This document shows, in pieces, positions 3,264-52,480 of a stretch of 64,000 nt of DNA (position 1 is its first letter; the number at the start of each line of letters is the position of its first letter). This stretch comes from Candidatus Levyibacteriota bacterium (lineage in GTDB: Bacteria > Patescibacteriota > Microgenomatia > Levybacterales > UBA12049): NCBI GenBank assembly GCA_043823085.1, contig JBDRBE010000004.1, positions 5,510 to 69,509 on the forward strand, given 5' to 3'. The notes under the pieces were generated by a model, which saw only the letters and a list, made by a program, of their open reading frames with translations, was not told the DNA's origin and ran no database searches. Made by a program: the position numbers and the translations under genes.

Positions 3264-4028
3264 GTGAATAAAATTTATCTCTCTATTGTTATTCCTTGCT
3301 TTGATGAAATGACAAATCTTCAAAAAGGAGTTTTGGATAAGGTTGAGCACTTTTTGAATAAAAAGAATTATCTTTGGGAAGTTATTGTAGTTGATGATGG
3401 TTCAAAAGACGGGAGTATTGATTTTTTAGAACAATTTATCAGGGAAAATCCAAAGTTTAGAATGATGAAAAATTCTCATCTTGGGAAAGCGGGAGCTGTA
3501 ACAGCCGGGGTTTTGGATTCGAAAGGGGAATATATTCTTTTTACAGATATGGATCAGGCTACTCCAATTGAAGAAGTTGAAAAGCTTTTGCCATATTTCG
3601 ATGAAAAAAATGGGAATTTTGATGTGGTAATTGGATCAAGAGATACAAAGCGTAAAGGTTCACCATTAACACGTCTTATTATTTCAAGGGCGGCCATTAT
3701 ATTAAGGAAACTTCTTATTGGAATGAATGAGATCTCAGATACCCAGTGTGGTTTTAAGGCGTTTAAAAATGATGTTGCAAAGCAATTATTTACAAAAGTC
3801 AAAAATTTGCACAATGGATTTAGAAAGATATCAGGATCAGCTGTAACTGCAGGATTTGATATTGAGCTTTTATATCTTTCGGAAAAGCTAGGTTATAAAA
3901 TCAAAGAAGCTCCGGTTAATTGGCTATATGTGGAAACAAGGAGGGTAAATCCAATTAAAGATTCAATAGAGGGGTTAGTTGATTTAATCAGGATAAAGAT
4001 AAACGATATTAGAGGAATTTATAAGTGA
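3264..4028 (+). CDS. Family-2 glycosyltransferase, Dpm1/GtrB/CsbB-like polyprenyl-phosphate sugar synthase
   Basis: GTG start. Motifs SIVIPCFDE..VIVVDDGSKDGS..TDMDQ..GSR and QCGFKAF indicate a DPM1-like GT2 fold. Confidence 0.8.
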   Translation: MNKIYLSIVIPCFDEMTNLQKGVLDKVEHFLNKKNYLWEVIVVDDGSKDGSIDFLEQFIRENPKFRMMKNSHLGKAGAVTAGVLDSKGEYILFTDMDQATPIEEVEKLLPYFDEKNGNFDVVIGSRDTKRKGSPLTRLIISRAAIILRKLLIGMNEISDTQCGFKAFKNDVAKQLFTKVKNLHNGFRKISGSAVTAGFDIELLYLSEKLGYKIKEAPVNWLYVETRRVNPIKDSIEGLVDLIRIKINDIRGIYK

Positions 4029-5197
4029 AGGTAAAATTGTTATTAATTGGTTATTTAATAGTTATTGTTGGATTATTTTTTTATTCTTTTACCCAGGTTG
4101 ATCTTGGTTTAACATTGACACGCTGGTCTCCTTGGCAAGTGGCGCAGAAATTTTTTCAAAGCATCGGTTATTTCAATAGGCCTTTGTCGGCAGTTTTATA
4201 TATTGCCATCGTTTTCCTTCTTTTTCTTTTTTATCTTTTGTTTTTATGGCTTTCTGTCAAGAAAAAAATAGCCAAAAAAGAGATTTGGACAGTAATAATT
4301 ATCACAAGTGTTATCTTAGGTTTTTCCTATAATGCTTTCTCCTATGATTTATTTAATTATATTTTTGACGCAAAAATTGTAACTTTTTATCATCAAAATC
4401 CATATTTGCATAAAGCTCTTGATTATCAGGGAGATGCGATGCTTTCTTTTATGCATTGGACGCACAGAGTCTACCCCTACGGGCCCGTTTGGTTAGGATT
4501 AACTGCTCCTTTATCGTTTTTAGGACTTCAGTTTTTTTTGCCTACGTTCTTTTTATTTAAATTCCTTTCAGTTGCTTCATTTCTGGGAACGGCTTTTTAT
4601 ATTTCGAAAATTTTAAAAAAAATATCTGCGGAAAACGAGCTTCACGGTATAGTCTTTTTTGCCCTTAATCCGCTGGTTATAATTGAAAGTCTAGTATCTG
4701 GCCATAATGATACTGCGATGATGTTTTTGTCAATAATGGCATTATATCTAATTATGAACATGAAATATTTTCGTTCAATTTTAGTACTCGGATTATCAAT
4801 CGGAGTTAAATTCGCTACGATTTTCCTAGTTCCTATTTTTATACTATTATTTTTATCTAAAAAGATAAAAAAAGAAATTAGCTGGCGGCAAGTGTCATTC
4901 TTGTTAATTGTTCTAATGATTATTCCAGTTTTTATTGCATCGCTACGGACAAATTTTCAGCCATGGTATTTACTTTATGTACTGCCTTTTGCCTCATTGC
5001 TTTCGAAAAAGTATTTTATTTTGATTCCGTCAATTATAATATCTTTCTTTTCTCTTTTAATGTACGTACCTTTTTTGTATTCAGGCAATTGGAATCCTCC
5101 TGTTCCCACGATATTATTCTGGATAGTATTGAGTTCAATCATTGTTTCTCTTTTTATTACCTCTATTTACTCTCTTGCCGCAAATAGAGTAAAATAA
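4025..5197 (+). CDS. Polytopic membrane protein, candidate GT-C glycosyltransferase (paralog of 43458-44603)
   Basis: 390 aa, more than 10 TM segments. Shares the NPLVIIESLVSGHNDTAMMFL block with the 43458 gene. GTG start overlaps the upstream stop by 4 nt. Confidence 0.6.
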   Translation: MKVKLLLIGYLIVIVGLFFYSFTQVDLGLTLTRWSPWQVAQKFFQSIGYFNRPLSAVLYIAIVFLLFLFYLLFLWLSVKKKIAKKEIWTVIIITSVILGFSYNAFSYDLFNYIFDAKIVTFYHQNPYLHKALDYQGDAMLSFMHWTHRVYPYGPVWLGLTAPLSFLGLQFFLPTFFLFKFLSVASFLGTAFYISKILKKISAENELHGIVFFALNPLVIIESLVSGHNDTAMMFLSIMALYLIMNMKYFRSILVLGLSIGVKFATIFLVPIFILLFLSKKIKKEISWRQVSFLLIVLMIIPVFIASLRTNFQPWYLLYVLPFASLLSKKYFILIPSIIISFFSLLMYVPFLYSGNWNPPVPTILFWIVLSSIIVSLFITSIYSLAANRVK

Positions 5198-5203
5198 ATT
5201 AAA

Positions 5204-6727
5204 ATGAATTTAAATTTTTTCAAAAAATATCGCATAGAAATAATTCTTTTTATTATAGCTTCCTTTCTTTTTTTCGCCTCTAGACTTTTTAAGCTTGATT
5301 CTTTACCAATTTTTACAGATGAAGCAATTTATCTCCGCTGGTCGCAAATTGCAAAGCAGGATGCCGCTTGGAGATTTATTTCTTTAACCGACGGTAAACA
5401 ACCGTTTTTTATTTGGCTTTCGATGATTTTTATGCGTTTTATAAAAGATCCGCTGATTGCGGGAAGAATGGTCTCTGTAATGGCCGGATTTTTCTCAATG
5501 ATCGGTCTTTTCTTTTTAGGCAGAGAAATTTTTAAAAACAGATGGGTTGGGATTATTTCTTCCTTTCTCTATGTCATTCTTCCTTTTTCTTTGGTCTATG
5601 ATCGCATGGCGCTTTATGATAGTCTTGTTGGGACTTTTGCCGTTTGGGGTTTATATTTTGAAATCTTACTAATCAGAAAACTTCGTTTTGATTTAGCTCT
5701 TATTCTCGGAATGATTTTGGGAGGAGCGGTTTTAACAAAAACTTCAGGATTTTTTGGAATTTATCTTCTTCCTTTTTCACTCTTGCTATTTAACTTCTCC
5801 AAGAAAGATAATCTTAGTAAGTTTCTCAAGTGGATTGTTTTGGCTATTATTGTTGTAATTTTTGTTTATGTTTATTATTCGGTTCTAAGACTTTCTCCGT
5901 TCTTCCATATAATTGATGAAAAAAATGCAATTTTTGTTTATCCTTTTAAAGACTGGTTAGCGCACCCATTTAATTATTTGTGGGGGAATTTAGTTGGTCT
6001 TTGGGATTGGTTTATTACTTATTTAACTTGGCCTATTTTTGCTCTTATCATTATTTCTTTATTTTTTTACCGTTCTTATTTTAGAGAAAAATTATTATTG
6101 TTGGTTTGGTTTTTGGCGCCCTTTTTTGCATTAGCGCTTTTTGGCAGAACTCTTTATCCCCGCTTTATCTTTTTTATGGTTCTTTCTCTTTTGCCTCTGG
6201 TTGCTCTTTCAATTTATCACGTGAGCCAATTAATCAAGAATCGTTTAATTTTTGTTATTTTTATTTTGTTAATTGGCGTATTTTCTCTTTATTCTGGTTT
6301 TTATATTCTAACAGATTTTTCAAAAGCGCCGATTCCAAATGCAGATAGAACGCAATATTTTAGCGGATGGTCTTCCGGTGTCGGCGTAAAAGAAGCGGTA
6401 GCCTACTTTAAAGACGAGGCAAAAAAGGGCCCAATCTATATTGCAACGCAAGGGACTTTTGGTTTAATGCCATATTCGCTTGAGATTTATCTTGATGAAA
6501 ATACAAATGTAAAAATTACAAGTTTTTGGCCGATTCCCGATAATATTCCAAAGGAATATTTGGATGCAAGTAAAAAGATGCCAACGTATCTTGTTTTTTA
6601 CCAGCCCTGCTATTCTTGCATGGGGACTGGTCTTGCTCCAGCGATCTGGCCGCTTGAAGAGATAATTAAAATTAATAAAGTAGAGCCAGGAATTTATTTT
6701 AGTGTTTATAAAGTGACGCCAAGATGA
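5204..6727 (+). CDS. GT-C fold membrane glycosyltransferase-like protein (ArnT/PMT-like, DE motif)
   Basis: 507 aa. N-terminal TM followed by an FTDEAIYLRW loop (the DE motif of GT-C first periplasmic loop), many TM segments and a C-terminal soluble domain. Confidence 0.6.
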   Translation: MNLNFFKKYRIEIILFIIASFLFFASRLFKLDSLPIFTDEAIYLRWSQIAKQDAAWRFISLTDGKQPFFIWLSMIFMRFIKDPLIAGRMVSVMAGFFSMIGLFFLGREIFKNRWVGIISSFLYVILPFSLVYDRMALYDSLVGTFAVWGLYFEILLIRKLRFDLALILGMILGGAVLTKTSGFFGIYLLPFSLLLFNFSKKDNLSKFLKWIVLAIIVVIFVYVYYSVLRLSPFFHIIDEKNAIFVYPFKDWLAHPFNYLWGNLVGLWDWFITYLTWPIFALIIISLFFYRSYFREKLLLLVWFLAPFFALALFGRTLYPRFIFFMVLSLLPLVALSIYHVSQLIKNRLIFVIFILLIGVFSLYSGFYILTDFSKAPIPNADRTQYFSGWSSGVGVKEAVAYFKDEAKKGPIYIATQGTFGLMPYSLEIYLDENTNVKITSFWPIPDNIPKEYLDASKKMPTYLVFYQPCYSCMGTGLAPAIWPLEEIIKINKVEPGIYFSVYKVTPR

Positions 6728-9132
6728 GAAAAGAATTTTTCTGGGCGTTTTTATTTTTTATCATCGTTTCTCTGTTTTTTTTCTATCCTCTGTTTGGGGG
6801 ATTTATTCCTTTCCCGGGAGATAATTTAGTTGGTAATTTTGGTCCTTACGATTCATTATCTTATGGTAAATATGGTCCTGGGGCGGTTCCAAATCTTGCC
6901 CAAGGACCCGATGTTATCCGGGAACTTTTTCCTTGGAAAAATTTTGTTATCGAAAGTTTCAAGCAATTTCAAATTCCTTTTTGGAATCCGTATAATTTTT
7001 CAGGTAACCCCTTAATGGCCAATTTTCAAAGCGGTGCGTTTTATCCTCTTAATTTGGTTTTTTTAATATTCAATTTTTTAAACGGCTGGTCGATTTTTAT
7101 TCTTCTTATCCCAGTTTTGGCTGGTATTTTTACTTATCTTTTTCTTCGGGAACTTAGCCTTTTAAAGTTAGCGAGTGTTTTTGGAGGAATTGTTTTTGCC
7201 TTTTCTTCCTACATGGTTGTGTGGATGGAATATGGTAACGTTGGACATACATTTCTTTGGCTGCCTCTTGGTCTCTTTTTTACAGAAAAGTTAATAAAAA
7301 AAACCAATTATAAATATATTTTCTTTTTAGTCATGGTTTTATTTTTTGCTCTTCTTGCCGGTTATATTCAAGGATATATTTATTCAATCGCAATAGTTAT
7401 TTTTTATTATCTTCTAAAAAATATTTTAGCAAGAAAATTTTCTTTCAAAAAAACCATTTTGTTTTTGACAAGCGTTTTAATTTTTCCATTGGGATTAGCA
7501 TTGTTTCAAATTTTACCAACTCTTGAATTGTTTTCTAATTCTTCAAGAGGAAGTTATAGCTTTGAACAGACTATCAAAATCTTAAATCCATTTTGGTATT
7601 TTATTACGACAGTTGCTCCTGATTTTTTTGGTAATCCGGCAACGAGAAATCACTGGTTTTTGGGAACATATATAGAAAAGGTGTCCTATTTCGGCCTTAT
7701 TCCTTTGATATTGGCAATAAGCGCGGTTTTCAATTTTAAAAAAAGAAAAGAGATTGCCATTTTTGGAGCATTACTTATTTTAAGTTTTATTTTGGCAACA
7801 GATTTATTTTTCAACCGAATCGTTTATCTTTTTCCAATTCCAATAATTTCTACAATGGTTCAAACGAGAATTTTAAGCATTTTTGTTTTTTCCGGGAGTA
7901 TTCTTTCTGCTTTCGGGTTTAATTTTTTTCTAAAAAAAGATAACAAAAAAGGTCTTTGTTTATCATTTACTTTAATTTCAGTCTTAATTTTTATCGCATG
8001 GGTTTTTGTATTCTTAATGCCAAAAATTTTTCCCCAAGAAAATTGGACTCAAAATTTAGCAGTTGCCAAAAGAAATCTTATTTTACCTTCAATTTTTCTT
8101 CTTTGTTTTTTAATTCTGTCAGTAAGCTACTTGAAGATATTCAAGAAGTCGTATCTTATCAAAATAATAATTATTTTGATATTTTTACTGACTTTGTTTG
8201 ATCTTTTCCGTTTCTTTCAAAAAATTACGCCTTTTTCGCCAAAAGATTATGTTTATCCAAGTACACCGGTCATAGATTATCTAAAGAAAAATGGTTCACT
8301 TTATCGTTTCTGGGGTTATGGCAGCGGTTATGTTGACAGTAATTTCCAAACATATGATCACACCTTTTCACCGGAGGGGAATGATCCGATTCATATTAAA
8401 AACTATACGGAATTTTTATCTTCGTCCAAAGATGGAACTCTACCTTCTATTCTTCCTCGCCCCGATGCAAATATCGCATCGGGTTTTAGTCAGACAGACC
8501 TCAATGATAATAATTTTCGGCAGAAAGTTTTAAATATTTTGGGAGTGAAATATATTTTAAATAAAAGCAATCTATTATCAAATAATTTTCAACCCGATAA
8601 CATAACTTTTCCGCAAACAAAATATAAACTAATTTGGCAAAATGCCCCCTGGCAAATTTATGAAAATTTAAAAGTAGTTCCGCGTGTTTTTTTGACAACG
8701 AATTATATTGTTGTGCAGGACAAAAAAGAAATCCTTAAGAAATTCTATTCCAAAGATTTTGATGAATCAAAGAAAATTATTCTGAATGAAGACCCTCGTT
8801 TATTAATTAATAATAACTCGCTCTCAAAAGCTGCGATTATTTCTTACGAGCCAAACAAAGTTGTTGTCCAAACAAGCTCCAATAGTAACGCTTTGCTTTT
8901 TCTTTCCGATACTTATTACATATCATGGAAAGCAAAAGTTGATGAAAATGCAACCAAAGTTTATTTAGCAGATTATACTTTTAGAGCAGTTGCTGTTCCA
9001 AAAGGAGAACACAAAGTAACTTTTTATTTTGAATCAGACTCGTTTAAAAAAGGGTTAGTTTTATCCGGCATAATTTTTATTCTTTTTATAACTTTTATAA
9101 TCTTTATAAAGAGGCAAAAAAATTATGAATAA
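6724..9132 (+). CDS. YfhO-family large membrane protein (GT-C superfamily) A1
   Basis: 802 aa. N-terminal block D..REL(F)PW..FWNPYNFSGNPLMANFQSG and C-terminal block YLADYTFRAVAVPKGEHKVTFYF followed by a C-terminal TM. Paralog of 19853, 23551 and 29047. Confidence 0.7.
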   Translation: MRKEFFWAFLFFIIVSLFFFYPLFGGFIPFPGDNLVGNFGPYDSLSYGKYGPGAVPNLAQGPDVIRELFPWKNFVIESFKQFQIPFWNPYNFSGNPLMANFQSGAFYPLNLVFLIFNFLNGWSIFILLIPVLAGIFTYLFLRELSLLKLASVFGGIVFAFSSYMVVWMEYGNVGHTFLWLPLGLFFTEKLIKKTNYKYIFFLVMVLFFALLAGYIQGYIYSIAIVIFYYLLKNILARKFSFKKTILFLTSVLIFPLGLALFQILPTLELFSNSSRGSYSFEQTIKILNPFWYFITTVAPDFFGNPATRNHWFLGTYIEKVSYFGLIPLILAISAVFNFKKRKEIAIFGALLILSFILATDLFFNRIVYLFPIPIISTMVQTRILSIFVFSGSILSAFGFNFFLKKDNKKGLCLSFTLISVLIFIAWVFVFLMPKIFPQENWTQNLAVAKRNLILPSIFLLCFLILSVSYLKIFKKSYLIKIIIILIFLLTLFDLFRFFQKITPFSPKDYVYPSTPVIDYLKKNGSLYRFWGYGSGYVDSNFQTYDHTFSPEGNDPIHIKNYTEFLSSSKDGTLPSILPRPDANIASGFSQTDLNDNNFRQKVLNILGVKYILNKSNLLSNNFQPDNITFPQTKYKLIWQNAPWQIYENLKVVPRVFLTTNYIVVQDKKEILKKFYSKDFDESKKIILNEDPRLLINNNSLSKAAIISYEPNKVVVQTSSNSNALLFLSDTYYISWKAKVDENATKVYLADYTFRAVAVPKGEHKVTFYFESDSFKKGLVLSGIIFILFITFIIFIKRQKNYE

Positions 9133-10669
9133 AAAAACACTTTTAATTTTATTTCTTGTTTTTGTAATTTCTCTTCCTGCGATAGTTTTTCTTTTACAAA
9201 AGGGATTTTTTTTGACAGACGATGGAGAGTGGATGGTTATAAGATTTTCCGCTTTTCATCAGGCGCTGCGCGATGGCCAATTCCCCGTTAGGTTTTTGGG
9301 ACGATTAAATTATGGCTATGGATATCCTGTTGCAAATTTCTTATATCCGGGTTTTATGTATATGGCGGAAATTCCTAAAATTTTGGGTTTTGGTTTTGTC
9401 AATTCAATAAAAATAATTTTAGGCTTATCAATGGTCACTTCTGCCATTTTTACATATCTATGGTTGTCAAAATTATTTAATAGAATATCAGCTATTATCG
9501 GTTCTCTTTTCTATCTTTATACTCCTTATCATCTTTTCGACCTTTATAAAAGGGGATCAATCGGTGAAATTCTAGCGTTTTCAATAATTCCTTTTATTCT
9601 TTGGCAGATAGAGCGAAAGAGCCTATTTTGGATAGCGATAGGAATTTCATTTCTAATTCTTTCTCATAACACGCTGGCTCTGCTTTTTGTGCCAGTAATT
9701 TTTCTTTATTGTTTTTTAGGTAAACTATTTTCTATACGCCATACGCTATTTGCCATTCTTATTGGTCTTGGTCTTTCTTCATTTTTTATCATTCCTGTAT
9801 TTTTTGAACTTTCTTATACGCAATTTTCAAATATTCAAATATCAAATTTTAAAAACTATTTTGCACCGTTTGAATTGATTGGTGTTTCGACAATTTTCAT
9901 TTTAATTTTTGCCTCGTTATCTATATTTGATATTTTACAGAAAAAGAATTGGATAAAGCAAAATATTAATAAATTGTTTTTTTTGATGGCTTTTGTAGCT
10001 TTGCTAAGTATTGTTTTAAGCACAAAAGCGAGTCTAATCCTGTGGAATTTTATTCCTGCCTCTCTTGTTCAATTTCCGTTTAGATTCTTGTCTTATCTTC
10101 CGGTATCTCTGGCATTTATCGCAGGGTTTGTCGCTTTTCACTTCAAAGGTAAAAAGCAAATTATTGTTTGTTCAATTTTATTAGTTTCATTGATTTTTTC
10201 AGCCTATTTATTTTTGAAGCCTTCGCAAGTTTTTGATAAAGGGGAAGGATTTTATGCAACAAACGAGGCGACAACTACTGTGCAGGATGAATATATGCCA
10301 AAGTGGGTGAAGAGTAAACCTGCAAAACATTTTGATCAGAAGGTAGAAATAATTAAAGGAAAAGGAAATATCAATGATATTGTTTATAACTCAAAAAATG
10401 TTGGGTTCAATATTCAATCGACAGAAAACACAAAGGTTAGAATAAACACTATTTATTATCCGGGATGGAAAGCGTTTATCAACGGAAAAGAATCAGCGAT
10501 TGAATACAACAATGATTTTGGCGTAATGGATTTATCAATTCCAAAAGGGGAGCATAAGATTGAGTTTAATTTCTCCGAAACTCCTCTTCGTCTATTTGCC
10601 GACATAATTTCAATTTTATCTTTGCTCACGTTGTTTTTGGTCACAAAAATTTATAAGTCTAAGTTCTGA
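9125..10669 (+). CDS. YfhO-related large membrane protein, family B (HDG..H..R / GYGYP N-terminus, YYPGW..PKGEH C-terminal module) B1
   Basis: 514 aa. TDDGEWMVIRF...FPVRFLGRLNYGYGYPVANFLYP, many TM segments, C-terminal IYYPGWKAFINGKE...IPKGEHKIEF plus a terminal TM. Possibly the PTPS-related membrane family (unverified). Confidence 0.6.
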   Translation: MNKKTLLILFLVFVISLPAIVFLLQKGFFLTDDGEWMVIRFSAFHQALRDGQFPVRFLGRLNYGYGYPVANFLYPGFMYMAEIPKILGFGFVNSIKIILGLSMVTSAIFTYLWLSKLFNRISAIIGSLFYLYTPYHLFDLYKRGSIGEILAFSIIPFILWQIERKSLFWIAIGISFLILSHNTLALLFVPVIFLYCFLGKLFSIRHTLFAILIGLGLSSFFIIPVFFELSYTQFSNIQISNFKNYFAPFELIGVSTIFILIFASLSIFDILQKKNWIKQNINKLFFLMAFVALLSIVLSTKASLILWNFIPASLVQFPFRFLSYLPVSLAFIAGFVAFHFKGKKQIIVCSILLVSLIFSAYLFLKPSQVFDKGEGFYATNEATTTVQDEYMPKWVKSKPAKHFDQKVEIIKGKGNINDIVYNSKNVGFNIQSTENTKVRINTIYYPGWKAFINGKESAIEYNNDFGVMDLSIPKGEHKIEFNFSETPLRLFADIISILSLLTLFLVTKIYKSKF

Positions 10670-10704
10670 ATAATTCCGCTTCATTTAGTATAATAATAGG
10701 TAGC

Positions 10705-22427: not shown

Positions 22428-22490
22428 AAGCAGATGCTAACATAGTAAAAAAAGCTTTGCAAGAGGCAAAAAAGTTGATAGAATTATGAA

Positions 22491-31467: not shown

Positions 31468-31532
31468 TTTAGGATTTGCAATGATTTTAATATTATAATA
31501 AAGTAAATATATCATAAGTTCTTGCCCGAGTC

Positions 31533-39487: not shown

Positions 39488-39488
39488 T

Positions 39489-41910: not shown

Positions 41911-41920
41911 AGATTTAAAT

Positions 41921-44603: not shown

Positions 44604-44607
44604 CAAT

Positions 44608-46482: not shown

Positions 46483-48100
46483 ATACATATTATTAGTATT
46501 AATAATTAGTTTCTTTTCGGTCCTGGCATTATTGCCTCACGGTTTGCTGCCAACCCATGATGGCGAGTATCATGTCATAAGATTTTACGAGTTTGATAAA
46601 GTTTTACGAGACGGAAATTTTTATCCGAGATGGGCTCCCGATTTAAATAATGGTTTTGGCGTGCCGCTTTTTAACTATGTTTATCCGTTGCCAAATTACT
46701 TTGCTTCTTTGCTTCATCTCTTTGGGATAAGTTTTATTGATTCCTTTAAGCTAAACATGTTTTTTGCATCGATTTTTGGAACTATATTTTTCTATCTTTG
46801 GACAAGACGATTTTGGGGAAATTTGGGAGGTGTTGTTTCTTGCGCCTTCTATTCGTTTTCTCCATATCGGTTTGTTGATGTTTACATTAGGGGGTCTGTA
46901 GGTGAAATTTGGGCGCTTGCTTTTTTCCCGGCCTTTCTTTGGTCAATAACCAATTTCATAAAAACAAAAAGCATGAAGGATTTTGTTCTGTCAAGTTTAT
47001 TTTTATCGGCATTAATTTTTTCTCATAATATCTTGGCGTTAATGTTTTTCTTTTTCTCAATGTCGTATGTAGCCTTTTTAATTTTAAAAGAAGAAAATAA
47101 AAAAGATGTAGTATTAAAAATTTTACTCATAATATTTTTAGGATTAGGTTTGTCTTCGATTTTTTGGCTTCCGGCAGTTTTAGAAACAAAGTTCGTTACA
47201 GGGCTTCAGATTTATAATGTAAAAGAAAATTTTCCAGATCTTTTTGCGCTTTTAATTCCATCTTGGGGGTCGGGTTTTTCAGGGGGAAGTCTTCAAAATC
47301 AAATGTCTTTTCAAATAGGGATTGCTAATTTGTTTGCAGTTTTTTCATCTGTAATTATTTTGGTTTTATCGATAAGGAAAAAAGCTGAATACAAAAGCTC
47401 AATATTCTTTTTTCTAACTTGGTTTGTAATTACATTTTTTTTGATGCTTAAAACTTCCTTGCCGATTTGGGAAAAAGTTCCTTTTATGGATTATTTCCAA
47501 TTTCCTTGGCGTTTCTTGAGTCTTGAAATTGTTGTAGCGTCTTTTCTAGCAGGTAGTATCGTAAAAGCCCACAAGCCAAAATTACTGGCGGCATTTTTTA
47601 TTATTTTAGTTTTTTTGTTAGGCATAGGATATGCAAAACCAGCTTATTATTTTAACAGAGATGATAATTATTATGTGACTCGTTCTAATTTTATAGACGG
47701 GACAAATAGTCCGGGAAATTTTTTCAACACAATTTGGATGAATAATCAGTTGGCAAAACAAAAAGAAAAAATTATTCTCAAAAAAGAAGACGGAGAAATT
47801 AATTCGTTTAAAATTAAGTCAACAATTTACGAGTTTAATGTTTTTATAAAAAAAGATTTAAAAATTGCTGTAAATACTGCTTATTTTCCGGGTTGGATTG
47901 CTACTGTTGATGGAAGAAACGTTGAAACGTTTTACGATAAAGACGGACTTCTTACTTTTTCCGTTCCCAAGGGAAACCATAATATAATGGTTAGGTTTTC
48001 AGAAACGCCAATTAGAAAAATCGCATTAGTTTGGACTTTAACATCAATTTGTCTATTGGCTTTATTTGGTGTAAGCCGCTATGTTAAAATTAAAAAATGA
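46460..48100 (+). CDS. YfhO-related large membrane protein, family B (B4)
   Basis: PTHDGEYHVIRFYEFDKVLRDGNFYPRWAPDLNNGFGVPLFNYVYP; C-terminal YFPGWIATVDGRNVE..VPKGNHNIMVRF plus a terminal TM. Start uncertain: ATG 46460 chosen; the ORF begins at 46424. Confidence 0.6.
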   Translation: MARFLKFKYILLVLIISFFSVLALLPHGLLPTHDGEYHVIRFYEFDKVLRDGNFYPRWAPDLNNGFGVPLFNYVYPLPNYFASLLHLFGISFIDSFKLNMFFASIFGTIFFYLWTRRFWGNLGGVVSCAFYSFSPYRFVDVYIRGSVGEIWALAFFPAFLWSITNFIKTKSMKDFVLSSLFLSALIFSHNILALMFFFFSMSYVAFLILKEENKKDVVLKILLIIFLGLGLSSIFWLPAVLETKFVTGLQIYNVKENFPDLFALLIPSWGSGFSGGSLQNQMSFQIGIANLFAVFSSVIILVLSIRKKAEYKSSIFFFLTWFVITFFLMLKTSLPIWEKVPFMDYFQFPWRFLSLEIVVASFLAGSIVKAHKPKLLAAFFIILVFLLGIGYAKPAYYFNRDDNYYVTRSNFIDGTNSPGNFFNTIWMNNQLAKQKEKIILKKEDGEINSFKIKSTIYEFNVFIKKDLKIAVNTAYFPGWIATVDGRNVETFYDKDGLLTFSVPKGNHNIMVRFSETPIRKIALVWTLTSICLLALFGVSRYVKIKK

Positions 48101-49164
48101 AAGTTGCTATTGATATATCGCCTCTCAAGTCAGGTCATAAGGTGAGAGGAGTGGGGTTTTATTTAGAAAATTTAAAAAAATCACTTGTTGAATACGAAAA
48201 TTCTATTGAGTATGTTTTTTTTGATGAAGAAAAAGAAATACCTAATAATATTGATCTTGTTCACTATCCTTATTTTGACCCCTTTTTTTTAACATTACCA
48301 ATATTCAAGAAATACAAAACTATTGTTACAGTTCACGATTTAACTCCTCTTGTTTTCCCCAAAGCTTTTCCGAAGGGATTAAAAGGGAATATTAAATGGC
48401 AGATGCAAAAGATAGCGTTAAGAACAACCTGTGCAGTTATCACTGATTCCAAAGCTTCAAAATCAGATATCGTAAAGTTTACAGGAATAAATGAAGAAGA
48501 AATTCACGTAGTTTACTTGGCGGCAGGGGAAGAATTTATGAAGATGGAAGATGCCCGCCTGCCGGACGGGCAGGGAAGATGGAAGATGGAAATTAGAAAA
48601 AAATATAATTTGCCAGAGAAATTTGTTTTATATGTTGGAGATGTGACATGGAATAAGAATTTGCCAAGACTAGTGGAAGCTTTGAAGAAAACCAATTTAC
48701 CCTTGGTTATGGTTGGTAAAGCAATTGCAAGTAATGATTTTGATAAGAATAATTTTTGGAATTCTGATTTGACTAAAGTTCAAAATTTAATAAAAGGTGA
48801 TGAAAGATTTTTAAGGCTTGGATTTGTTCCTACAATTGATTTAGTTTGTCTTTATAATCTTGCAACTGTTTTTGTTATGCCATCTCTTTATGAAGGTTTT
48901 GGGTTACCGGTATTGGAAGCCATGAGTTGTGGTTGTCCAGTTGTGACAACGAAAGAGGGTTCATTAAAAGAAATCGCCGGGGATGCGGCGTTTTTTGTTG
49001 AAGCTTACGATACGGAAAGTATTGCAGACGGAATTAATAAAGTTTTTAGCGATAAGTTAATTCAGGAGAATTTATCTAGAGAAGGGTTAGTTTGGGCTAA
49101 AAATTTTAAGTGGAAAAAAACAGCTAAAAATACAGCCGCTGTTTATAAAAGTTTAACTTCATGA
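48097..49164 (+). CDS. GT4-family glycosyltransferase carrying a GC-rich in-frame insertion
   Basis: YEGFGLPVLEAMSCGCPVVTTKEGSLKEIAGDAA is the GT4 signature. It contains the palindromic insert at 48554-48575. Confidence 0.75.
   Translation: MKVAIDISPLKSGHKVRGVGFYLENLKKSLVEYENSIEYVFFDEEKEIPNNIDLVHYPYFDPFFLTLPIFKKYKTIVTVHDLTPLVFPKAFPKGLKGNIKWQMQKIALRTTCAVITDSKASKSDIVKFTGINEEEIHVVYLAAGEEFMKMEDARLPDGQGRWKMEIRKKYNLPEKFVLYVGDVTWNKNLPRLVEALKKTNLPLVMVGKAIASNDFDKNNFWNSDLTKVQNLIKGDERFLRLGFVPTIDLVCLYNLATVFVMPSLYEGFGLPVLEAMSCGCPVVTTKEGSLKEIAGDAAFFVEAYDTESIADGINKVFSDKLIQENLSREGLVWAKNFKWKKTAKNTAAVYKSLTS
48540..48588. repeat. GC-rich hairpin (cccgCCTGCCggacgGGCAGGg) flanked by 13-14 bp direct repeat (g)aagatggaagatg, in-frame within a GT4 CDS
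   Basis: Direct repeat at 48541-48553 and 48576-48588 with a 6-bp stem / 5-nt loop hairpin between them. Encodes KMEDARLPDGQGRWKMEI. Structure resembles a target-site duplication. Confidence 0.6.
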
Positions 49165-50426
49165 AGAAAAAAATCCTTTATTTAATCAAGAACCCTTTAA
49201 TTTCTGGCAGTACAATTATTTTTTTTGGTTTGGGATTGGCTAATCTTTTGAACTATTTTTTTAATTTGAGCATGGGGAGACTGCTTTCAGTTTCAGACTA
49301 TGGCACATTAGGTTCTTTAATATCAATCGTTAATATTTTTAATATTGTAGCATTGACGATAACCGTTGTTTTTACTAAATTCACAGCTTCCTTTTTGGGT
49401 CAAAACAAAGAAACAAGTATTCCGCTCCTTTTTCGTAAAGGAACGCTTTGGATTGGTGCAATAAGCTTATTTATTCTAGTGGTGCTCGTTATTTCATCTG
49501 GTCAAATTGCGCATTTTCTAAACATAAAAGATAAATTTTTAATAGATATAATTTCTTTAGCAGTTTTTTTCCTTTTGCTTCTTGCGGTCGTATTCGGTAT
49601 TGTTCAGGGACTTCTTAAATTTACTTTTTATTCAATCTCCAATATTTTAGTTTCTCTTGTTAAATTAGTTTTAGGTGTTGTTTTAGTTTTTTTAGGATTT
49701 CGGGTATTTGGTTCAGTATTGGCAATTATGGTCTCGTTAGCATTGGGATATTTTTTCACTTTTTTCTATATCCGCCGTTTTTTTCTTAAAAATAAAACAA
49801 AAGATTTTGCAATCCCTAATTTAGCAAGCACGCTTTCAGGCTACGGAATTCCTGTGCTTTTGGCAAATCTTGGTATAATTTCCATTATTTCAATGGATCT
49901 TATTGTTGTAAAACACTTCTTTTCGGATACTATTTCCGGTCAATATGCGGCACTATCTCTGATGGGGAGGTCGATATCCTACGTGGTTACTCCAATTCTT
50001 CTTGTGCTTTTTCCTCTTATTGCACAAAAAAAAGAACGTCGGGAAAAATTACTTGGAACGGTTTTCCTTTCGGCGCTTCTCATTGGAGTACCTTCAATAT
50101 CCTTAAGTGCACTATATTTTTTATTCCCAAATATCGTTTTAAAGATTTTTTTCCCCGCACAAGCATATGCAACACTCGCTCAATTTCTAGGTCCTTTTTC
50201 TATTTTTATTCTTTTTTACACATTTGCATCACTTCTAAACAGTTTTTATCTGTCAATTGGAAAAACTAAAGTGTTTATTTTTAATCTTATTGCTCTTTTT
50301 TTGGAAATCTTATTTATTACTTTTTTCCATGCAAATATTTCTCAAGTGGTTACAGGGTTAATTGGAATATCTTTTTTACTTCTTTTAGCGCTTTTGCTAT
50401 ACTACCCACATGCAACAAAAAAATAA
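49161..50426 (+). CDS. Wzx/MOP-family flippase-like membrane protein
   Basis: 421 aa, about 12-14 TM segments. Paralog of 51221 (shared PLISGSTIIFFGLGLANLLNYFFNL / PIISGSIIIFLGATLASFFSFLFNL N-termini). Confidence 0.65.
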   Translation: MKKKILYLIKNPLISGSTIIFFGLGLANLLNYFFNLSMGRLLSVSDYGTLGSLISIVNIFNIVALTITVVFTKFTASFLGQNKETSIPLLFRKGTLWIGAISLFILVVLVISSGQIAHFLNIKDKFLIDIISLAVFFLLLLAVVFGIVQGLLKFTFYSISNILVSLVKLVLGVVLVFLGFRVFGSVLAIMVSLALGYFFTFFYIRRFFLKNKTKDFAIPNLASTLSGYGIPVLLANLGIISIISMDLIVVKHFFSDTISGQYAALSLMGRSISYVVTPILLVLFPLIAQKKERREKLLGTVFLSALLIGVPSISLSALYFLFPNIVLKIFFPAQAYATLAQFLGPFSIFILFYTFASLLNSFYLSIGKTKVFIFNLIALFLEILFITFFHANISQVVTGLIGISFLLLLALLLYYPHATKK

Positions 50427-51210
50427 TCTTGTTTCTCTTATTATCCCTGCATTTAAGCAAGAAAAAACGATAAAGAAAGATCTTATACGTATCAAAAACG
50501 TTATAGATCAATTAAGATATGAATACGAAATTATTGTTGTTGTTGATGGCCGTCTTGATAAAACCTTTGAAAAAGCTTCAGAAATAAAATCTGAGAAAAT
50601 AAAGGTTATTGGTTATCAGAATAATTATGGCAAAGGACATGCTGTTAGATTTGGTATGGCAAAGGCAAAAGGGGATATAGTTGCTTTTATTGATTCGGGG
50701 ATGGATATTAATCCTAATGGTTTATCGATGCTTTTGGAGCACTTTGAATGGTATAATGCGGATATTATTGTTGGATCAAAGCTTCATCCTGTTTCAAAAG
50801 TAAGTTATCCACCTTACAGAAAAATCTTATCTTTCGGGTATAGAATTTTGGTAAGAATACTTTTTGGTTTATCAATCAAAGATACTCAAGTTGGGATGAA
50901 GTTCTTCAGAAGAAAAGTCTTGGAAGATGTTCTACCGCGGCTTTTGGTTAAAACATACGCTTTTGATATTGAAATATTAGCAGTTTCTTATTATCTTGGA
51001 TATAAAAGAATTTTTGAAGCTCCTATAGAGCTTGATTTTGGCGGAGAAACATCCATCGTTTCAAAAGGTTTTTGGCGAACAATATTTCATATGCTTTGGG
51101 ATACGCTAGCCGTGTTTTACAGGCTTAAAATTCTAAGGTATTATGATAATAGAAATAAAAGAAAATGGAGATTCGATCCGGATTTAAACTTCAAAATAAA
51201 TCTACAGTAA
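50410..51210 (+). CDS. Family-2 glycosyltransferase, GtrB/ArnC/Dpm1-like polyprenyl-phosphate glycosyltransferase
   Basis: Motifs VSLIIPAFKQE..IIVVVDGRLDKT..GKGHAVRFG..AFIDSGMDINP..QVGMKFFRR. Confidence 0.75.
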   Translation: MQQKNNLVSLIIPAFKQEKTIKKDLIRIKNVIDQLRYEYEIIVVVDGRLDKTFEKASEIKSEKIKVIGYQNNYGKGHAVRFGMAKAKGDIVAFIDSGMDINPNGLSMLLEHFEWYNADIIVGSKLHPVSKVSYPPYRKILSFGYRILVRILFGLSIKDTQVGMKFFRRKVLEDVLPRLLVKTYAFDIEILAVSYYLGYKRIFEAPIELDFGGETSIVSKGFWRTIFHMLWDTLAVFYRLKILRYYDNRNKRKWRFDPDLNFKINLQ

Positions 51211-51220
51211 AGCTTGCCTT

Positions 51221-52480
51221 ATGAAAAAAAAGATACAGTTAGCCTTCAAACACCCCATTATTTCGGGAAGCATTATTATTTTTTTAGGAGCAACACTCGC
51301 AAGTTTTTTTAGCTTCTTGTTTAATCTTTTTATGACCAGAAATCTTTCGGTTGTTGATTATGGAGTATTAGCAAGTTTACTTTCTCTGACTACGTTTTTT
51401 GGATTAGTAGGAGGTGCATTTGTTCCAACCATAGTTAACTTTGCCGGAGGTTATTTTGCAAAAAAAGAATATAACAAAGCTTTCGGACTTTTCAGAAAAC
51501 TTAGTTTTTTTTCTTTTTTTCTTGGTTTTATTATTTTTATTAATTTTTTATTGTTCCAAAAACAAATTGGAAGTTTTTTTAATATTCAGGAGCAATCGTT
51601 AATTCCTCTTATAGGGCTTATGATTCTTTTAGGCTATATGAGCATAGTTAATACCGCATTTCTTCAAGCTAAACTTGCTTTTTCATTCTTATCTTTCAAC
51701 AGTTTCATGTCTGGGTTTTTGAAGCTTTTGTTTGGAATAATATTTATTTTTTTGGGATTTAGAGTAGCAGGAGCCTTGTGGGCGAATACACTTTCAGGGA
51801 TAATACCTTATTTAGTAACGTTTTTAGCCTTGAAATTTCTTTTTTCTTCAAAGGTTGATTCAGCTGTTGAAATTAAGAAAGTCATTTCATATGGTGCTCC
51901 TGCTGCAGTTTCACTTGTTAGCCTATCTTCTTTTGTTACGACTGATATTATTTTAGTAAAACATTTTTTTACTCCGGAACTTGCTGGAATCTATGCCGGC
52001 ATATCTTTAATTGCGAGAATTATTTTCTTTTTTTCAGCTCCAGTTGGAACAGTCATGTTTTCTCTTATAGTTCAAAAACATACTCGAAAAGAAAATTATA
52101 ACGGGGATTTTTTACTTTCTTTGTTTCTGGTTCTTGTTCCTTCGTTATGTCTTAGCCTTATTTATTTCATTTTCCCGCAATTTATATTGTCAGTCTCTAC
52201 AAAGTCAGAGTATGTTAAAGGAGCATCTATGCTTGGAATATTTAGTATTTTTTCGACATTATATGCACTGTTATATTTATTCACAAATTTCTACTTATCA
52301 GTAAAAAAAACAATGATCTTTTTACCTCTTGCTTTTGGAGCAGTTGCTCAAGCAGTGCTTATTTGGTTTTTTCATAGTTCATTTTTTCAGGTTATTTTAA
52401 TTTCCATTGGTATTACCGGATTACTCGTTATCGCTCTTTTTTTACATTACTTCAAATCCTACTTAAAACAGAATAGTTGA
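51221..52480 (+). CDS. Wzx/MOP-family flippase-like membrane protein
   Basis: 419 aa polytopic membrane protein. Paralog of 49161. Confidence 0.65.
   Translation: MKKKIQLAFKHPIISGSIIIFLGATLASFFSFLFNLFMTRNLSVVDYGVLASLLSLTTFFGLVGGAFVPTIVNFAGGYFAKKEYNKAFGLFRKLSFFSFFLGFIIFINFLLFQKQIGSFFNIQEQSLIPLIGLMILLGYMSIVNTAFLQAKLAFSFLSFNSFMSGFLKLLFGIIFIFLGFRVAGALWANTLSGIIPYLVTFLALKFLFSSKVDSAVEIKKVISYGAPAAVSLVSLSSFVTTDIILVKHFFTPELAGIYAGISLIARIIFFFSAPVGTVMFSLIVQKHTRKENYNGDFLLSLFLVLVPSLCLSLIYFIFPQFILSVSTKSEYVKGASMLGIFSIFSTLYALLYLFTNFYLSVKKTMIFLPLAFGAVAQAVLIWFFHSSFFQVILISIGITGLLVIALFLHYFKSYLKQNS

Follow-up and report, generated by a model that had tools for sequence, protein, structure and literature searches.

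Gene content of the locus

The window analysed here comprises 64,000 nt (positions 5,510–69,509 of contig JBDRBE010000004.1) from a MAG of a Candidatus Levyibacteriota bacterium, an ultra-small member of the Microgenomates (CPR/Patescibacteria; GCA_043823085.1), and all coordinates below refer to it. Positions 3264–52480 are occupied by an array of ~49 kb that is nearly without gaps (coding fraction 0.995, or 99.5%), in which neighbouring genes overlap at 18 of 36 junctions and lie more than 35 nt apart at only two. By ORF list, Pfam, hydropathy and all-vs-all BLASTP, the array encodes 19 polytopic GT-C proteins, nine GT2s, two GT4s, three MOP/Wzx flippases and GalE, with the GT-C genes taking up 33.3 kb (68% of its length). 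This inventory reproduced nearly gene for gene that of an earlier sequence-only reading, including its overlapping starts and stops, its three flippases, its approximately 19 large GT-C-type proteins and their division into families. Its placement of almost all genes on one strand holds for 35 of 37, the exceptions being g20 and a 78-aa DUF5652 ORF, whereas its counts of at least 11 GT2s and 4 GT4s are reached only if 52.5–60.5 kb is included.

Genes of the array and beyond (TM, transmembrane; scores in bits):
3264–4028, plus: g1, soluble group A GT2, DPM1/ArnC/GtrB-like (Glycos_transf_2 89.8; no TM segment)
4025–5197, plus: g2, GT-C, MptA/B- or GT87-like, ~10 TM (GT87 18.7, below cutoff)
5204–6727, plus: g3, GT-C, PMT_2 (ArnT/GT39/83-like; PMT_2 42.4, above cutoff)
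6724–9132, plus: g4, GT-C, YfhO (102.6; 33–36% identity to g14, g16 and g20)
9125–10669, plus: g5, GT-C, PTPS_related (PF10131 35)
10705–12423, plus: g6, GT-C, PTPS_related (PF10131 42.5)
12420–13133, plus: g7, group A GT2 (DPM1/ArnC-like), immediately upstream of flippase g8
13120–14574, plus: g8, MOP/Wzx flippase (Polysacc_synt_3 167.9)
14576–15487, plus: g9, group B GT2, GmaR/SunS-like (Pfam; group profile against PDB)
15489–16181, plus: g10, 230-aa protein of no family, N-terminal TM (no Pfam match at E ≤ 10)
16182–17141, plus: g11, group C GT2 (generic or rhamnosyltransferase-like)
17145–19094, plus: g12, GT-C without Pfam model, AglB-like C-terminal globular domain
19099–19863, plus: g13, group B GT2
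19853–22198, plus: g14, GT-C, YfhO (100.9)
22191–22427, minus: small 2-TM DUF5652 gene, 78 aa (PF18893 79.3; same place in siblings)
22491–23561, plus: g15, GT4 (Glycos_transf_1 69.4)
23455–25830, plus: g16, GT-C, YfhO (72.1)
25834–26781, plus: g17, group C GT2 with heptanucleotide tract
26854–27570, plus: g18, group A GT2, DPM1-like, conserved heptanucleotide tract (Glycos_transf_2 126.5)
27574–29043, plus: g19, GT-C, 'DQxRD' PMT_2-like (PMT_2 21.8, below cutoff)
29047–31515, minus: g20, GT-C, YfhO, sole large minus-strand gene (100)
31533–33224, plus: g21, GT-C, PMT_2/ArnT-like (PMT_2 51.2; family profile matches ArnT 5ezm)
33217–34878, plus: g22, GT-C, PMT/PMT_2, with heptanucleotide tract
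34875–36503, plus: g23, GT-C, PMT_2/PMT, with heptanucleotide tract
36507–37994, plus: g24, GT-C, 'DQxRD' PMT_2-like (PMT_2 21.9, below cutoff)
37970–39487, plus: g25, GT-C, distant g19/g24 relative (PMT_2 15.8; BLASTP to g19/g24, E 1e-12 to 1e-15)
39474–41132, plus: g26, GT-C, PTPS_related
41143–41910, plus: g27, group B GT2
41921–42931, plus: g28, UDP-glucose 4-epimerase GalE (TIGR01179 378.4, equivalog cutoff 262.3)
42880–43461, plus: g29, DUF5667 protein, one N-terminal TM (PF18915 27.7)
43458–44603, plus: g30, GT-C, MptA/B-like, g2 paralog, with heptanucleotide tract
44608–46482, plus: g31, GT-C, same unmodelled superfamily as g12 (no Pfam match; AF2, Foldseek, hhalign)
46424–48100, plus: g32, GT-C, PTPS_related, YfhO-like C terminus (PF10131 66.1; YfhO 38.1)
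48097–49164, plus: g33, GT4 (Pfam)
49161–50426, plus: g34, MOP/Wzx flippase (Polysacc_synt 40.3; 35% identical to g36)
50410–51210, plus: g35, group A GT2, flippase gene on each side
51221–52480, plus: g36, MOP/Wzx flippase (Polysacc_synt_3 34.4)
52491–63852, mixed strands: continuation of the glycan locus (Pfam, NCBIfam; collinear with sibling L005), with two GT4s, two GT2s, an unknown membrane protein, two SDR dehydratase/epimerases and RfbH-like and PseC-like aminotransferases, and on the minus strand DUF1361 and sugar C-methyltransferase genes

Among the GT-C proteins, the four YfhO members (g4, g14, g16 and g20) scored 72–103 bits in Pfam against a cutoff of 28.5, and the four PTPS_related proteins (g5, g6, g26 and g32), recognized earlier as an HDG/GYGYP family, were linked to YfhO at 99.5% by hhalign. 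The tandem ArnT-like proteins g21–g23, which matched PMT/PMT_2, form a set of four with g3. The three 'DQxRD' proteins fall below the PMT_2 cutoff (g19 and g24 are 49% identical, g25 ~27% identical to them) and were connected to g21–g23 at 93% probability (hhalign, E 3e-7). Two further pairs consist of g2 and g30 (38% identical by BLASTP, with PF26314 MptA_B_family among their precomputed matches) and of g12 and g31. The AF2 model of g31 (pLDDT 92.5) matched STT3, AglB, DPY19, ArnT and AftA in Foldseek, and g31 was aligned to the g12 family at 99.7% by hhalign; from this predicted structure we place the g12/g31 family, of which the g31 branch counts 3,719 representative proteins at 50% identity, in the GT-C fold. 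Pfam, structure prediction and hhalign together support the assignment of the large membrane proteins as putative GT-C enzymes and not transporters.

The GT2s fell into three groups. Group A (g1, g7, g18 and g35) aligned to DPMS (best PDB match 5mlz, E 1e-36), ArnC and GtrB along the entire catalytic domain, and several g18 orthologs are annotated by JGI as dolichol-phosphate mannosyltransferase. Group B (g9, g13 and g27) matched GmaR (22ao, E 2e-27) and SunS in profile comparison with PDB, and group C (g11 and g17) consists of generic elongating GT-A enzymes. The earlier description of the GT2s as DPM1/CsbB-like therefore applies to the four group A proteins but not to groups B and C. Flippase g8 also had sub-cutoff NCBIfam matches to MOP flippase and O-glycosylation Wzx. 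The window contains no priming phosphoglycosyltransferase, Wzy polymerase, LCP ligase or GtrA-type flippase, and promoter and terminator scans of the locus gave signals no higher than shuffled sequence.

A proposed assembly line

The array is probably, in our moderately confident view, a conserved operon-like supercluster for making at least one complex glycoconjugate of the cell surface, with most of the synthesis at the outer side of the cytoplasmic membrane. Starting from the families and folds, topology, gene order, paralog age and synteny observed, we infer donor sugars, flippase roles, acceptors, co-transcription and an order of reactions. NDP-sugars would be supplied by GalE and the downstream nucleotide-sugar enzymes, and single sugars would be loaded onto polyprenyl phosphate by the soluble GT2s g1, g7, g18 and g35. 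Lipid-linked (or protein) acceptors would be primed or built in the cytoplasm by the remaining GT2s and the GT4s, and the three flippases would move lipid-linked intermediates outward. Each of the 19 GT-Cs, which represent six or seven old families, would then attach one sugar in one linkage to an extracellular acceptor as it grows. With four donor synthases feeding 19 GT-Cs, few lipid-linked donors would therefore serve many non-redundant transferases. The sequence-only reading had seen a three-component module of GT2, flippase and GT-C multiplied about tenfold; these components are indeed interleaved, but at four DPM1-like GT2s to three flippases to 19 GT-Cs the locus is not such a multiplied module, and we favour an assembly line over a decoration trio repeated ten times.

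Heptanucleotide tracts in glycosyltransferase genes

Repeat tracts in several of these genes suggest that some steps of the assembly line may be switchable and not fixed. All five perfect tandem repeats in the window (at least three copies and at least 20 nt) have period 7 and lie in frame inside glycosyltransferase genes, compared to 0.02 expected from an order-5 Markov model and 0.28 from synonymous-codon shuffling (maximum two in 300 shuffles):
25984–26016, plus: g17, perfect (AAAATCA) x4.7, codons 51–61
27000–27036, plus: g18, perfect (AATCTCA) x5.3, codons 49–61
33578–33608, plus: g22, perfect (AATTTTC) x4.4, codons 121–131
36055–36085, plus: g23, perfect (TATTTGC) x4.4, codons 394–404
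43620–43651, plus: g30, perfect (TTTTTAT) x4.6, codons 55–65

These tracts might be phase-variation sites, candidates named from sequence. Slipped-strand gain or loss of units would then switch single glycosyltransferases, including donor synthase g18, on and off, and a clonal population would therefore show mixed surface glycans; we regard this as a tentative possibility. A change of one unit is computed to truncate g17, g18, g22 and g30 to 59–155 aa. The L004/L005 sibling contig carries seven further tracts, every one of period 7, and shares the g18 and g22 sites at identical codons with differing units (ATTGGAA at the g22 site in L005). Perfect tracts occupy the g18 site in four genomes, with units homogenized within each tract: AATCTCA x5.3 in the window genome and, among L004, L018 and L019, AATCTCA x5.6, AATTTCC x5.6 and GAAATTC x4.9. 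Across g18 ortholog clusters, 48 of 120 show a peptide with the 7-aa periodicity that these tracts would give; period 7 was found in 31 of the 76 orthologs scorable for other periods and any other period in at most three, and two orthologs are shorter by exactly 7 aa (three units). Array loci totalling 274 kb contain 24 short perfect repeats, and the period is 7 in 19 of these.

Against switching, the 14 perfect tracts found with four or more units are all in the ON frame, and the protein clusters are all singletons. Tract length is narrow (4.4–5.6 units), unlike that of classical contingency loci, and tracts are absent from several siblings with the same array (L006, L008, L011, L013–L015 and L017). 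No tract occurs in 14.8 kb outside the array of the same genome, although at P ~0.07 this does not demonstrate enrichment in the array. Tract-bearing genes equal their tract-less homologs in length, and the tracts could therefore have arisen neutrally, through an unusual process of slippage or homogenization in tolerant helices. For genes in the ON state, switching agrees with the assembly line proposed above. Of the variable surface decoration proposed earlier, variation in gene content finds little support; the tracts, which that reading did not notice, would be a different possible route to variability.

Acceptors, conserved loop residues and age of the array

Instead of a polysaccharide or a teichoic-acid-like polymer, the main acceptors could be envelope proteins such as S-layer proteins or pilins, with the locus an O-/N-glycosylation factory in which chains would be initiated by the PMT-like enzymes and the g12/g31 family would behave like oligosaccharyltransferases. 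We consider this rather unlikely. Seven proteins are of PMT/PMT_2 lineage, with a loop-1 DE motif in g3 and g21–g23, but ArnT and other enzymes that modify lipids or glycans also belong to PMT_2. Group B GT2s are similar to GmaR and SunS, both protein glycosyltransferases, yet the window holds no evident acceptor protein gene. A WWDYG-type motif is missing from both g12 and g31, and ALG12, AftA, Pmt4 and ArnT score almost as high as oligosaccharyltransferases, so the likeness of g12 and g31 reflects the GT-C-A fold in general. A Woesebacteria g31 homolog adjoins pilus genes, but the same locus has an LCP ligase gene, which points to wall-linked polymers.

It is more doubtful that a sizeable share of the 19 GT-C-fold proteins are non-glycosyltransferases (serving instead as catalytically inactive scaffolds, as polymerases or ligases, in acceptor binding or in recycling of the lipid carrier), leaving far fewer than 19 steps. 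Five proteins score under Pfam cutoffs in our scan (g2, g19, g24, g25 and g30), and a second, acceptor-binding protein may be needed for transfer (PMC8035078). However, every family has an invariant acidic position, the Asp that follows TM1 in extracytoplasmic loop 1 (DE in g3 and g21–g23, DQxRD in g19, g24 and g25, HDG in PTPS_related, D63 in YfhO, YD in g2 and g30, D143 in g12 and D130 in g31). Each paralog is also kept full-length as an ortholog across ~1-Mb genomes 30–50% apart in protein sequence, which argues for purifying selection on each.

That the array is chimeric or mis-assembled, as its MAG origin could allow, or grew recently by tandem expansion of redundant genes, as the interleaved families could suggest, is refuted for practical purposes: GC is even across the window (0.28–0.35), an independent Logan assembly matches 249–11688 (11.4 kb) at 100% identity, no DNA repeat is longer than ~95 nt (best ~76% identity), paralogs are merely 27–49% identical by all-vs-all BLASTP, and gene order is collinear in ~10 independent assemblies (JGI, ENA, NCBI and Logan).

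Array gene order recurs in ERZ1426827, GCA_900206355.1, GCA_043801155.1, GCA_964425075.1, GCA_964490105.1, JGI 3300027835, GCA_964367545.1 and four GTDB representatives. The sibling comparison proposed earlier found 1:1 syntenic orthologs of the paralogs in ~10 other Levybacteria-type assemblies; in L004/L005 these are 47–72% identical, always above the identity to any paralog. Gain, loss and shuffling are modest: extra PMT, DUF2079 or PBP genes, one or two flippases at g34–g36, and g20 on the minus strand in L018 too but on the plus strand in L006. An ortholog of g10 was found in L004 only among the siblings compared, and synteny marks g29 as a conserved partner of g30 and g31. Homologs of g12 stand alone amid housekeeping genes in some Levybacteria (L002 and L009), so single GT-Cs can act outside the array. 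Judged from these comparisons, the array has long been conserved as a block across species and is not a recent amplification, and old paralogs with 1:1 syntenic orthologs point to a fixed assembly line.

Literature searches found no characterized operon of comparable GT-C density, in keeping with the earlier view that the locus exceeds canonical operons. CsbB and GtrB have C-terminal TM helices, whereas hydropathy shows none in the four array donor synthases, for which no GacJ-like partner was found. In the GacI/GacK arrangement the synthase lies beside the flippase, and here two of four donor-synthase genes adjoin a flippase gene; GacK (PMC8035078) and a MATE-family flippase (PMC11127046) are precedents for such proteins acting on polyprenyl-P-sugars. 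Mycobacterial LM/LAM/arabinan assembly and the ALG pathway in the ER lumen follow the same few-donors, many-transferases logic as the proposed assembly line.

Gene content and layout of the array

The array (window 3264–52480, genes g1–g36 in order) was inventoried by Pfam scans of ORFs of at least 150 aa, a hydropathy scan and all-against-all BLASTP. It is an almost unbroken series of ORFs encoding 19 large polytopic membrane proteins, nine GT2 and two GT4 glycosyltransferases, three MOP/Wzx flippases, GalE (scoring 378 bits; equivalog cutoff, 262), a DUF5667 protein, a 230-aa protein without a family and, on the opposite strand, a small DUF5652 protein. Thirty-five of the 37 genes lie on the plus strand. 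Neighbouring genes overlap at 18 of 36 junctions, and gaps longer than 35 nt occur at only two places. Coding sequence occupies 99.5% of the array, with the large membrane proteins accounting for 33.3 kb (68%), and the GC content is low and uniform along the window (0.28–0.35). Individual features are as follows:

about 870–1274 and 1264–1461, minus strand: DUF5615/DUF433 pair, probably toxin–antitoxin, between the Lon protease gene and DUF3147 (gene calls of an identical Logan contig)
3077–3151: tRNA-Glu (CTC), 112 bp upstream of the first array gene
22191–22427, minus strand: DUF5652 gene, 78 aa with two TM segments, in the only sizeable array gap and at the same place in siblings
29047–31515, minus strand: g20, YfhO, the only large minus-strand gene

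Promoter and terminator scans of the locus gave signals at shuffle level only, and the tRNA-Glu was the sole match of an Rfam search. An extended −10 promoter-like site is present at 22456–22484, just downstream of the DUF5652 gene and facing g15. Transcription units may begin at about 3.2 kb and 22.46 kb. The start of g20 lies 17 bp from that of g21 (31533), so the g20 promoter must be within g21, and transcription from g21 on must either run antisense through g20 or begin anew there. In homologous loci of other genomes, g20 is on the minus strand in one (L018) and on the plus strand in another (L006); no flanking pair of inverted repeats, the signature of an invertible segment, was found around it. 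Long apparent overlaps occur at g15/g16 (107 nt, 23455–23561), g28/g29 (52 nt, 42880–42931) and g31/g32 (59 nt, 46424–46482, with a TTG start), where translation of the second gene probably begins further in than the mechanically called ORF start.

Twelve of the 19 large membrane proteins passed Pfam gathering thresholds. These were YfhO (PF09586, cutoff 28.5) for g4, g14, g16 and g20 (102.6, 100.9, 72.1 and 100 bits, respectively), PTPS_related for g5, g6, g26 and g32, and PMT_2/PMT for g3, g21, g22 and g23 (38–52 bits, cutoff 26.1), the last four with a DE motif at residues 33–40. The profile of this PMT_2/ArnT-like family matches ArnT (5ezm). A trio of 'DQxRD' proteins scored below the PMT_2 cutoff (g19, 21.8; g24, 21.9; g25, 15.8 bits) and had no PDB sequence match; hhalign related the trio to the g21–g23 profile (probability 93%, E = 3e-7), with the DQxRD aspartate falling on the PMT 'DE' position. 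The g2 and g30 proteins share 38% identity and a sub-threshold GT87 match, and precomputed annotations of genes identical or orthologous to them give MptA_B_family. The PTPS_related and YfhO families are mutually related (99.5%). When the PDB was searched with sequence profiles, none of the YfhO, PTPS_related, 'DQxRD' and Mpt-like families gave a match. Every GT-C family retains an invariant Asp in the first extracytoplasmic loop, a short distance beyond TM1 (D143 in g12 and D130 in g31).

The remaining pair, g12 (17145–19094, plus strand) and g31 (44608–46482, plus strand), had no Pfam match even at E ≤ 10 and no similarity to each other by BLASTP; their relationship was detected by profile–profile comparison. 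They form two branches of one GT-C superfamily with four extra N-terminal helices and no Pfam model. In structure comparisons, the C-terminal domain resembles the AglB globular domain, the best matches of both proteins include ALG12, STT3, DPY19 and Pmt4, and AftA, AftB, AftD and PimE are among the matches of g12. With 3,719 representatives at 50% identity within 1.84 billion proteins, the g31 branch adds a sizeable Pfam-less family to the GT-C enzymes. Other Levybacteria and more distant lineages have g12 or g31 homologs that are solitary or in small clusters. One g31 homolog, in the distant Microgenomates Woesebacteria GCA_001791955.1 (L016, 9216–15473), is clustered with PMT_2, DUF2298 and an LCP (LytR_cpsA_psr) ligase next to pilus genes, a hint that the substrates of such GT-Cs are wall-linked polymers.

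The GT2 enzymes fall into three groups: A (g1, g7, g18 and g35), B (g9, g13 and g27) and C (g11, g17 and the downstream GT2 d6). The group A profile matched Pyrococcus dolichol-phosphate mannose synthase (5mlz) over the whole catalytic domain (residues 6–237, E = 1e-36), followed by ArnC and then GtrB, and some annotation sources call g18 orthologs dolichol-phosphate mannosyltransferase. Group A, four of the nine array GT2s, is predicted from these matches to comprise polyprenyl-phosphate monosaccharide synthases. Hydropathy analysis found no hydrophobic segments in the four proteins, the C-terminal TM helices of the CsbB/GtrB type being absent. The best PDB match of group B was GmaR (E = 2e-27), then SunS, both protein glycosyltransferases; group C matched generic elongating GT-A enzymes. 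Among the three MOP/Wzx proteins, g8 and g34/g36 adjoin donor-synthase genes (g7–g8 and g34–g35–g36, two donor-synthase genes in all).

The dense GT-C array described by the sequence-only reading was thus confirmed by the ORF, Pfam, hydropathy and BLASTP inventory. That reading had allowed that the large membrane proteins might prove to be transporters; Pfam, profile and fold assignments together with the invariant Asp make them GT-C enzymes, so the observation stands. Its 11 GT2 and four GT4 genes are found only if the downstream region to ~60.5 kb is included, the array itself holding nine and two. The ten-fold three-gene module that it proposed did not survive: since the GT2s split into three groups, of which only A is donor-like, the stoichiometry is four donor synthases to three flippases to 19 GT-Cs.

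Downstream of the array, the same glycan locus runs to the window end (52491–63852), with dehydratase/epimerases, RfbH-like and PseC-like aminotransferases, a sugar C-methyltransferase and more GT2 and GT4 genes. Specific members resemble a CDP/dTDP-hexose 4,6-dehydratase, the RfbH 3-dehydrase/aminotransferase and a GDP-fucose synthase (reductase), and these genes suggest unusual sugars. No window ORF of at least 150 aa matched Bac_transf, Glycos_transf_4 (MraY/WecA), Wzy_C or Wzz; such genes may sit elsewhere in the genome. The window thus encodes neither a priming phosphoglycosyltransferase nor a Wzy polymerase, and it has no LCP ligase either. GtrA-family searches of the window likewise gave zero matches, and thus no GtrA flippase, and a GacJ-like small ORF is absent from the array, whose only small membrane ORF is DUF5652.

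Age and conservation of the paralogs

Paralogs within the array share 27–49% identity, and long direct DNA repeats were absent beyond ~95 nt, these at only ~76% identity. The NCBI proteins ABH816_02250 and ABH816_02350, encoded on a 431-kb contig of a 'Candidatus Levyibacteriota bacterium' MAG, match g12 and g31 at 100% identity. An independent Logan assembly, of SRR27458547, is 100% identical over window 249–11688. Gene order is shared with ERZ1426827, a 'Gottesmanbacteria' MAG, GCA_964425075.1 and GCA_964490105.1, and also with JGI 3300027835, GCA_964367545.1 and several GTDB representatives. A search of GTDB representatives, which do not include the source genome, with a 12-sequence alignment returned seven loci. 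In GCA_900206355.1, two 22-kb views of one 78-kb contig (L004 and L005) are collinear with the window at 64–72% DNA identity.

The best L004/L005 match of each window protein is the syntenic gene (47–72% identity), well above any paralog. The duplications are therefore much older than these species, and every paralog has been retained; this favours distinct, non-redundant roles over recent amplification, chimerism or free copy-number variation. A chimeric or recently amplified array was rejected on the identical Logan contig, the uniform GC, the lack of long DNA repeats and the collinear siblings. The interpretation given by the sequence-only reading is therefore partly supported: it holds for the GT-C nature and high density of the genes, fails for the ten-fold module and is weakly supported for variability in gene content. 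Differences among siblings are modest: some have an additional gene (PMT, DUF2079 or PBP), and the flippases around g35 number one or two; in L014, a g12 homolog occupies the position of g31. Two loci, L011 (CAZPUU010000001.1) and L014 (CAYLQG010000002.1), carry a Levybacteria-type array with 37–46% identity to g12, and their GTDB records ('uncultured Gammaproteobacteria bacterium') look taxonomically mislabelled.

Heptanucleotide tracts in glycosyltransferase genes

Half of the rows returned by Tandem Repeats Finder had a period of 7. A search for perfect repeats (units of 1–12 nt, at least three copies, at least 20 nt) found five in the window, all of period 7, 31–37 nt long and in frame in glycosyltransferase genes:

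25984–26016, plus strand: perfect tract in g17
27000–27036, plus strand: perfect tract in g18
33578–33608, plus strand: perfect tract in g22
36055–36085, plus strand: perfect tract in g23
43620–43651, plus strand: perfect tract in g30
19370–19398, 24303–24340 and 41423–41451: imperfect tracts

An order-5 Markov model predicted 0.02 such tracts, and synonymous-codon shuffling within genes predicted 0.28, with a maximum of two among 300 shuffles; the latter rules out protein sequence and codon bias as their source. Assembly collapse at k = 31 was also rejected, as perfect tracts of at least four units are all in frame, those in L018 and L019 reach 39 nt and four independent assemblies agree. The sibling contig (L004/L005) holds seven more tracts, of period 7 without exception.

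The g18 site is the most consistent. Its perfect tracts are AATCTCA ×5.3 in the window, AATCTCA ×5.6 in L019, AATTTCC ×5.6 in L018 and GAAATTC ×4.9 in L004; in the L004/L005 orthologs of g18 and g22, the tracts span the same codons as their window counterparts but with different unit sequences. A 7-aa periodic peptide, as a 7-nt repeat yields, was present in 48 of 120 g18 ortholog clusters, and among the 76 orthologs scorable for other periods, period 7 occurred in 31 and any other period in at most three. Correlated changes in these orthologs (K/Q with Q/P, for example) are those expected of a single-nucleotide change spread across all units, and two orthologs are shorter by exactly 7 aa. Tract-bearing genes have the same length as tract-less homologs, and the unit composition suits the local protein context. 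At the same site, orthologs including P0203, P0208, P0245, P0306, P0308, P0312 and P0313 carry in-frame insertions of 2–16 aa rich in G, R, S and A (for example, LGFARGEQFPPRLRSGRA), which, read back from protein, imply GC-rich DNA within an AT-rich gene.

Some heptamers recur among genes. TATTTGC or its rotation TTTGCTA is found in the YfhO gene g16 (24303–24340), the PMT_2 gene g23 (36055–36085) and the PTPS_related gene g26 (40140–40158), with another site of the recurring heptamer in g22 (34456–34473), and ATTGGAA recurs in GT2 and PMT_2 genes of the sibling (L004 7762–7792 and L005 428–458). Sharing by unrelated genes could reflect convergence on heptamers whose three reading frames all encode hydrophobic residues, or a copying process of some kind.

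The tracts might be slipped-strand ON/OFF switches, most consistently in g18, with which an ultra-small episymbiont could stochastically alter a glycan assembled by as many as 19 GT-Cs. Their anatomy is that of slipped-strand contingency loci: the unit is intragenic and not a multiple of three, gain or loss of a unit would shift the frame, and tracts persist at one site, homogenized, across lineages. Adding or removing a single unit would cut g17, g18, g22 and g30 short at 59–155 aa. Haemophilus and Neisseria have simple sequence repeat (SSR) contingency loci in their glycosyltransferase genes, with heptanucleotide SSRs reported in H. influenzae (e.g. PMC2651432; review PMC11868660); these loci resemble the tracts in having intragenic repeats of this kind in surface-glycan glycosyltransferase genes and in same-site retention across lineages with homogenization within each. 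The tracts here, known from assembled sequences, differ from those loci in being short (4.4–5.6 units), tight in length and always in frame. A look-up of length variants among protein cluster members found singletons in every cluster, and tract signatures were not enriched in the g12 and g31 families. Given that every perfect tract of at least four units is in frame, that lengths are narrowly spread and that several siblings lack tracts altogether, we regard switching as a tentative and rather doubtful reading; the tracts could also belong to these genomes generally and not to the glycan locus specifically. If they do switch, CPR bacteria would gain their first described SSR contingency system; we found no published report of SSR phase variation in these bacteria. 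Switching tracts would also supply a concrete mechanism for the combinatorial surface glycan envisaged from sequence, bear on phage evasion and host attachment, and take contingency-locus biology beyond host-adapted pathogens, into ultra-small bacteria of the environment.

A proposed glycan assembly line and its counterparts

CPR/Patescibacteria have ~1-Mb genomes and rely on contact with host cells, and to our knowledge almost nothing is known of their surface chemistry. A conserved locus of at least 49 kb plausibly represents ~5% of the genome, a figure taken from typical CPR genome sizes (the source contig is 431 kb). With two thirds of the locus given to extracytoplasmic GT-Cs, an elaborate, externally assembled glycan is likely to be central to the biology of these organisms, and the locus offers a defined gene set for heterologous reconstitution.

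The locus, of which parts list, fold, topology, paralog age and conservation are observed, is most plausibly a largely extracytoplasmic glycan assembly line, for which we infer sugars, acceptors, reaction order and co-transcription. The four group A GT2s would make a few polyprenyl-phosphate sugars, and the other GT2 and GT4 enzymes would make lipid-linked primers. Both kinds of intermediate would be flipped by the MOP proteins and then used by nineteen linkage-specific GT-C enzymes. GalE points to Gal or GalNAc as suggested sugars. By analogy, this logic would be closer to mycobacterial LM/LAM/arabinan synthesis and to the ALG steps of the ER lumen than to the Gtr/CsbB decoration module.

In the three-component systems GtrA/B/Gtr*, CsbB/GtcA/YfhO and GacI/J/K/L, a GT2 of GT-A fold makes a polyprenyl-phosphate sugar, a flippase moves it and a polytopic GT-C uses it outside the membrane (PMC8035078; PMC5836110). 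The array has predicted counterparts of all three components, including true YfhO-family members, and its soluble GT2s and Wzx-type flippases recall the GacI/GacK variant (PMC8035078). It departs from the 1:1:1 pattern, with 19 GT-Cs, four donor synthases and three flippases in one locus, and has donor synthases free of C-terminal TM helices, no GacJ-like partner and no GtrA. The known systems decorate a polymer made elsewhere, whereas the array GT-Cs dominate the locus, at 68% of its DNA, so that much of the glycan is probably their product.

Mycobacterial and corynebacterial LM/LAM and arabinogalactan synthesis employs Ppm1 together with PimE, MptA/B/C, EmbA–C and AftA–D (e.g. PMC2440535, PMC12041525). 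There, too, many non-redundant GT-Cs polymerize and branch a glycan outside the membrane from one or two polyprenyl-phosphate-sugar donors, and g2 and g30 match the MptA_B family, with Aft and PimE among the g12 structural matches. In mycobacteria, the genes are scattered or grouped in small clusters, whereas the array is a single 49-kb co-directional block in a ~1-Mb CPR genome; it holds no DPA pathway genes, and the YfhO, PTPS_related and g12/g31 families have no part in the mycobacterial pathway.

In the ER dolichol pathway (DPM1/ALG5, RFT1, ALG3/9/12/6/8/10, OST, PMT and DPY19), cytoplasmic glycosyltransferases, flipping and serial lumenal GT-Cs fed by Dol-P-Man and Dol-P-Glc follow one another. 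The likeness to the array would be one of logic only, as the array offers neither orthology nor evidence for en-bloc transfer to protein. That g12 and g31 are OST-like enzymes finishing such a lipid-linked oligosaccharide pathway, as their AglB-like domain might suggest, is still less likely than the heptanucleotide switch; a W[WYF]D search found in neither the WWDYG-type motif that, with DxD and TIXE, characterizes OSTs.

A pentofuranose system that pairs a MATE-family flippase with a GT136 GT-C sets two precedents, that a MOP-superfamily flippase can serve a polyprenyl-phosphate-sugar donor and that new GT-C families can be founded from structure predictions (PMC11127046). It differs from the array in using a PRPP-dependent polyprenyl-phosphoribose synthase instead of a GT2 and in having just one GT-C in each system.

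Both the enzyme families and the logic of the lipid carrier are established, and our literature searches found no report of GT-C superclusters or of phase variation in CPR. Against the literature found, what appears new is the scale and organization, with 19 GT-Cs of six or seven families in one conserved co-directional CPR block, together with the 4:3:19 stoichiometry, the large Pfam-less GT-C family with its AglB-like C-terminal domain and the heptanucleotide tracts.
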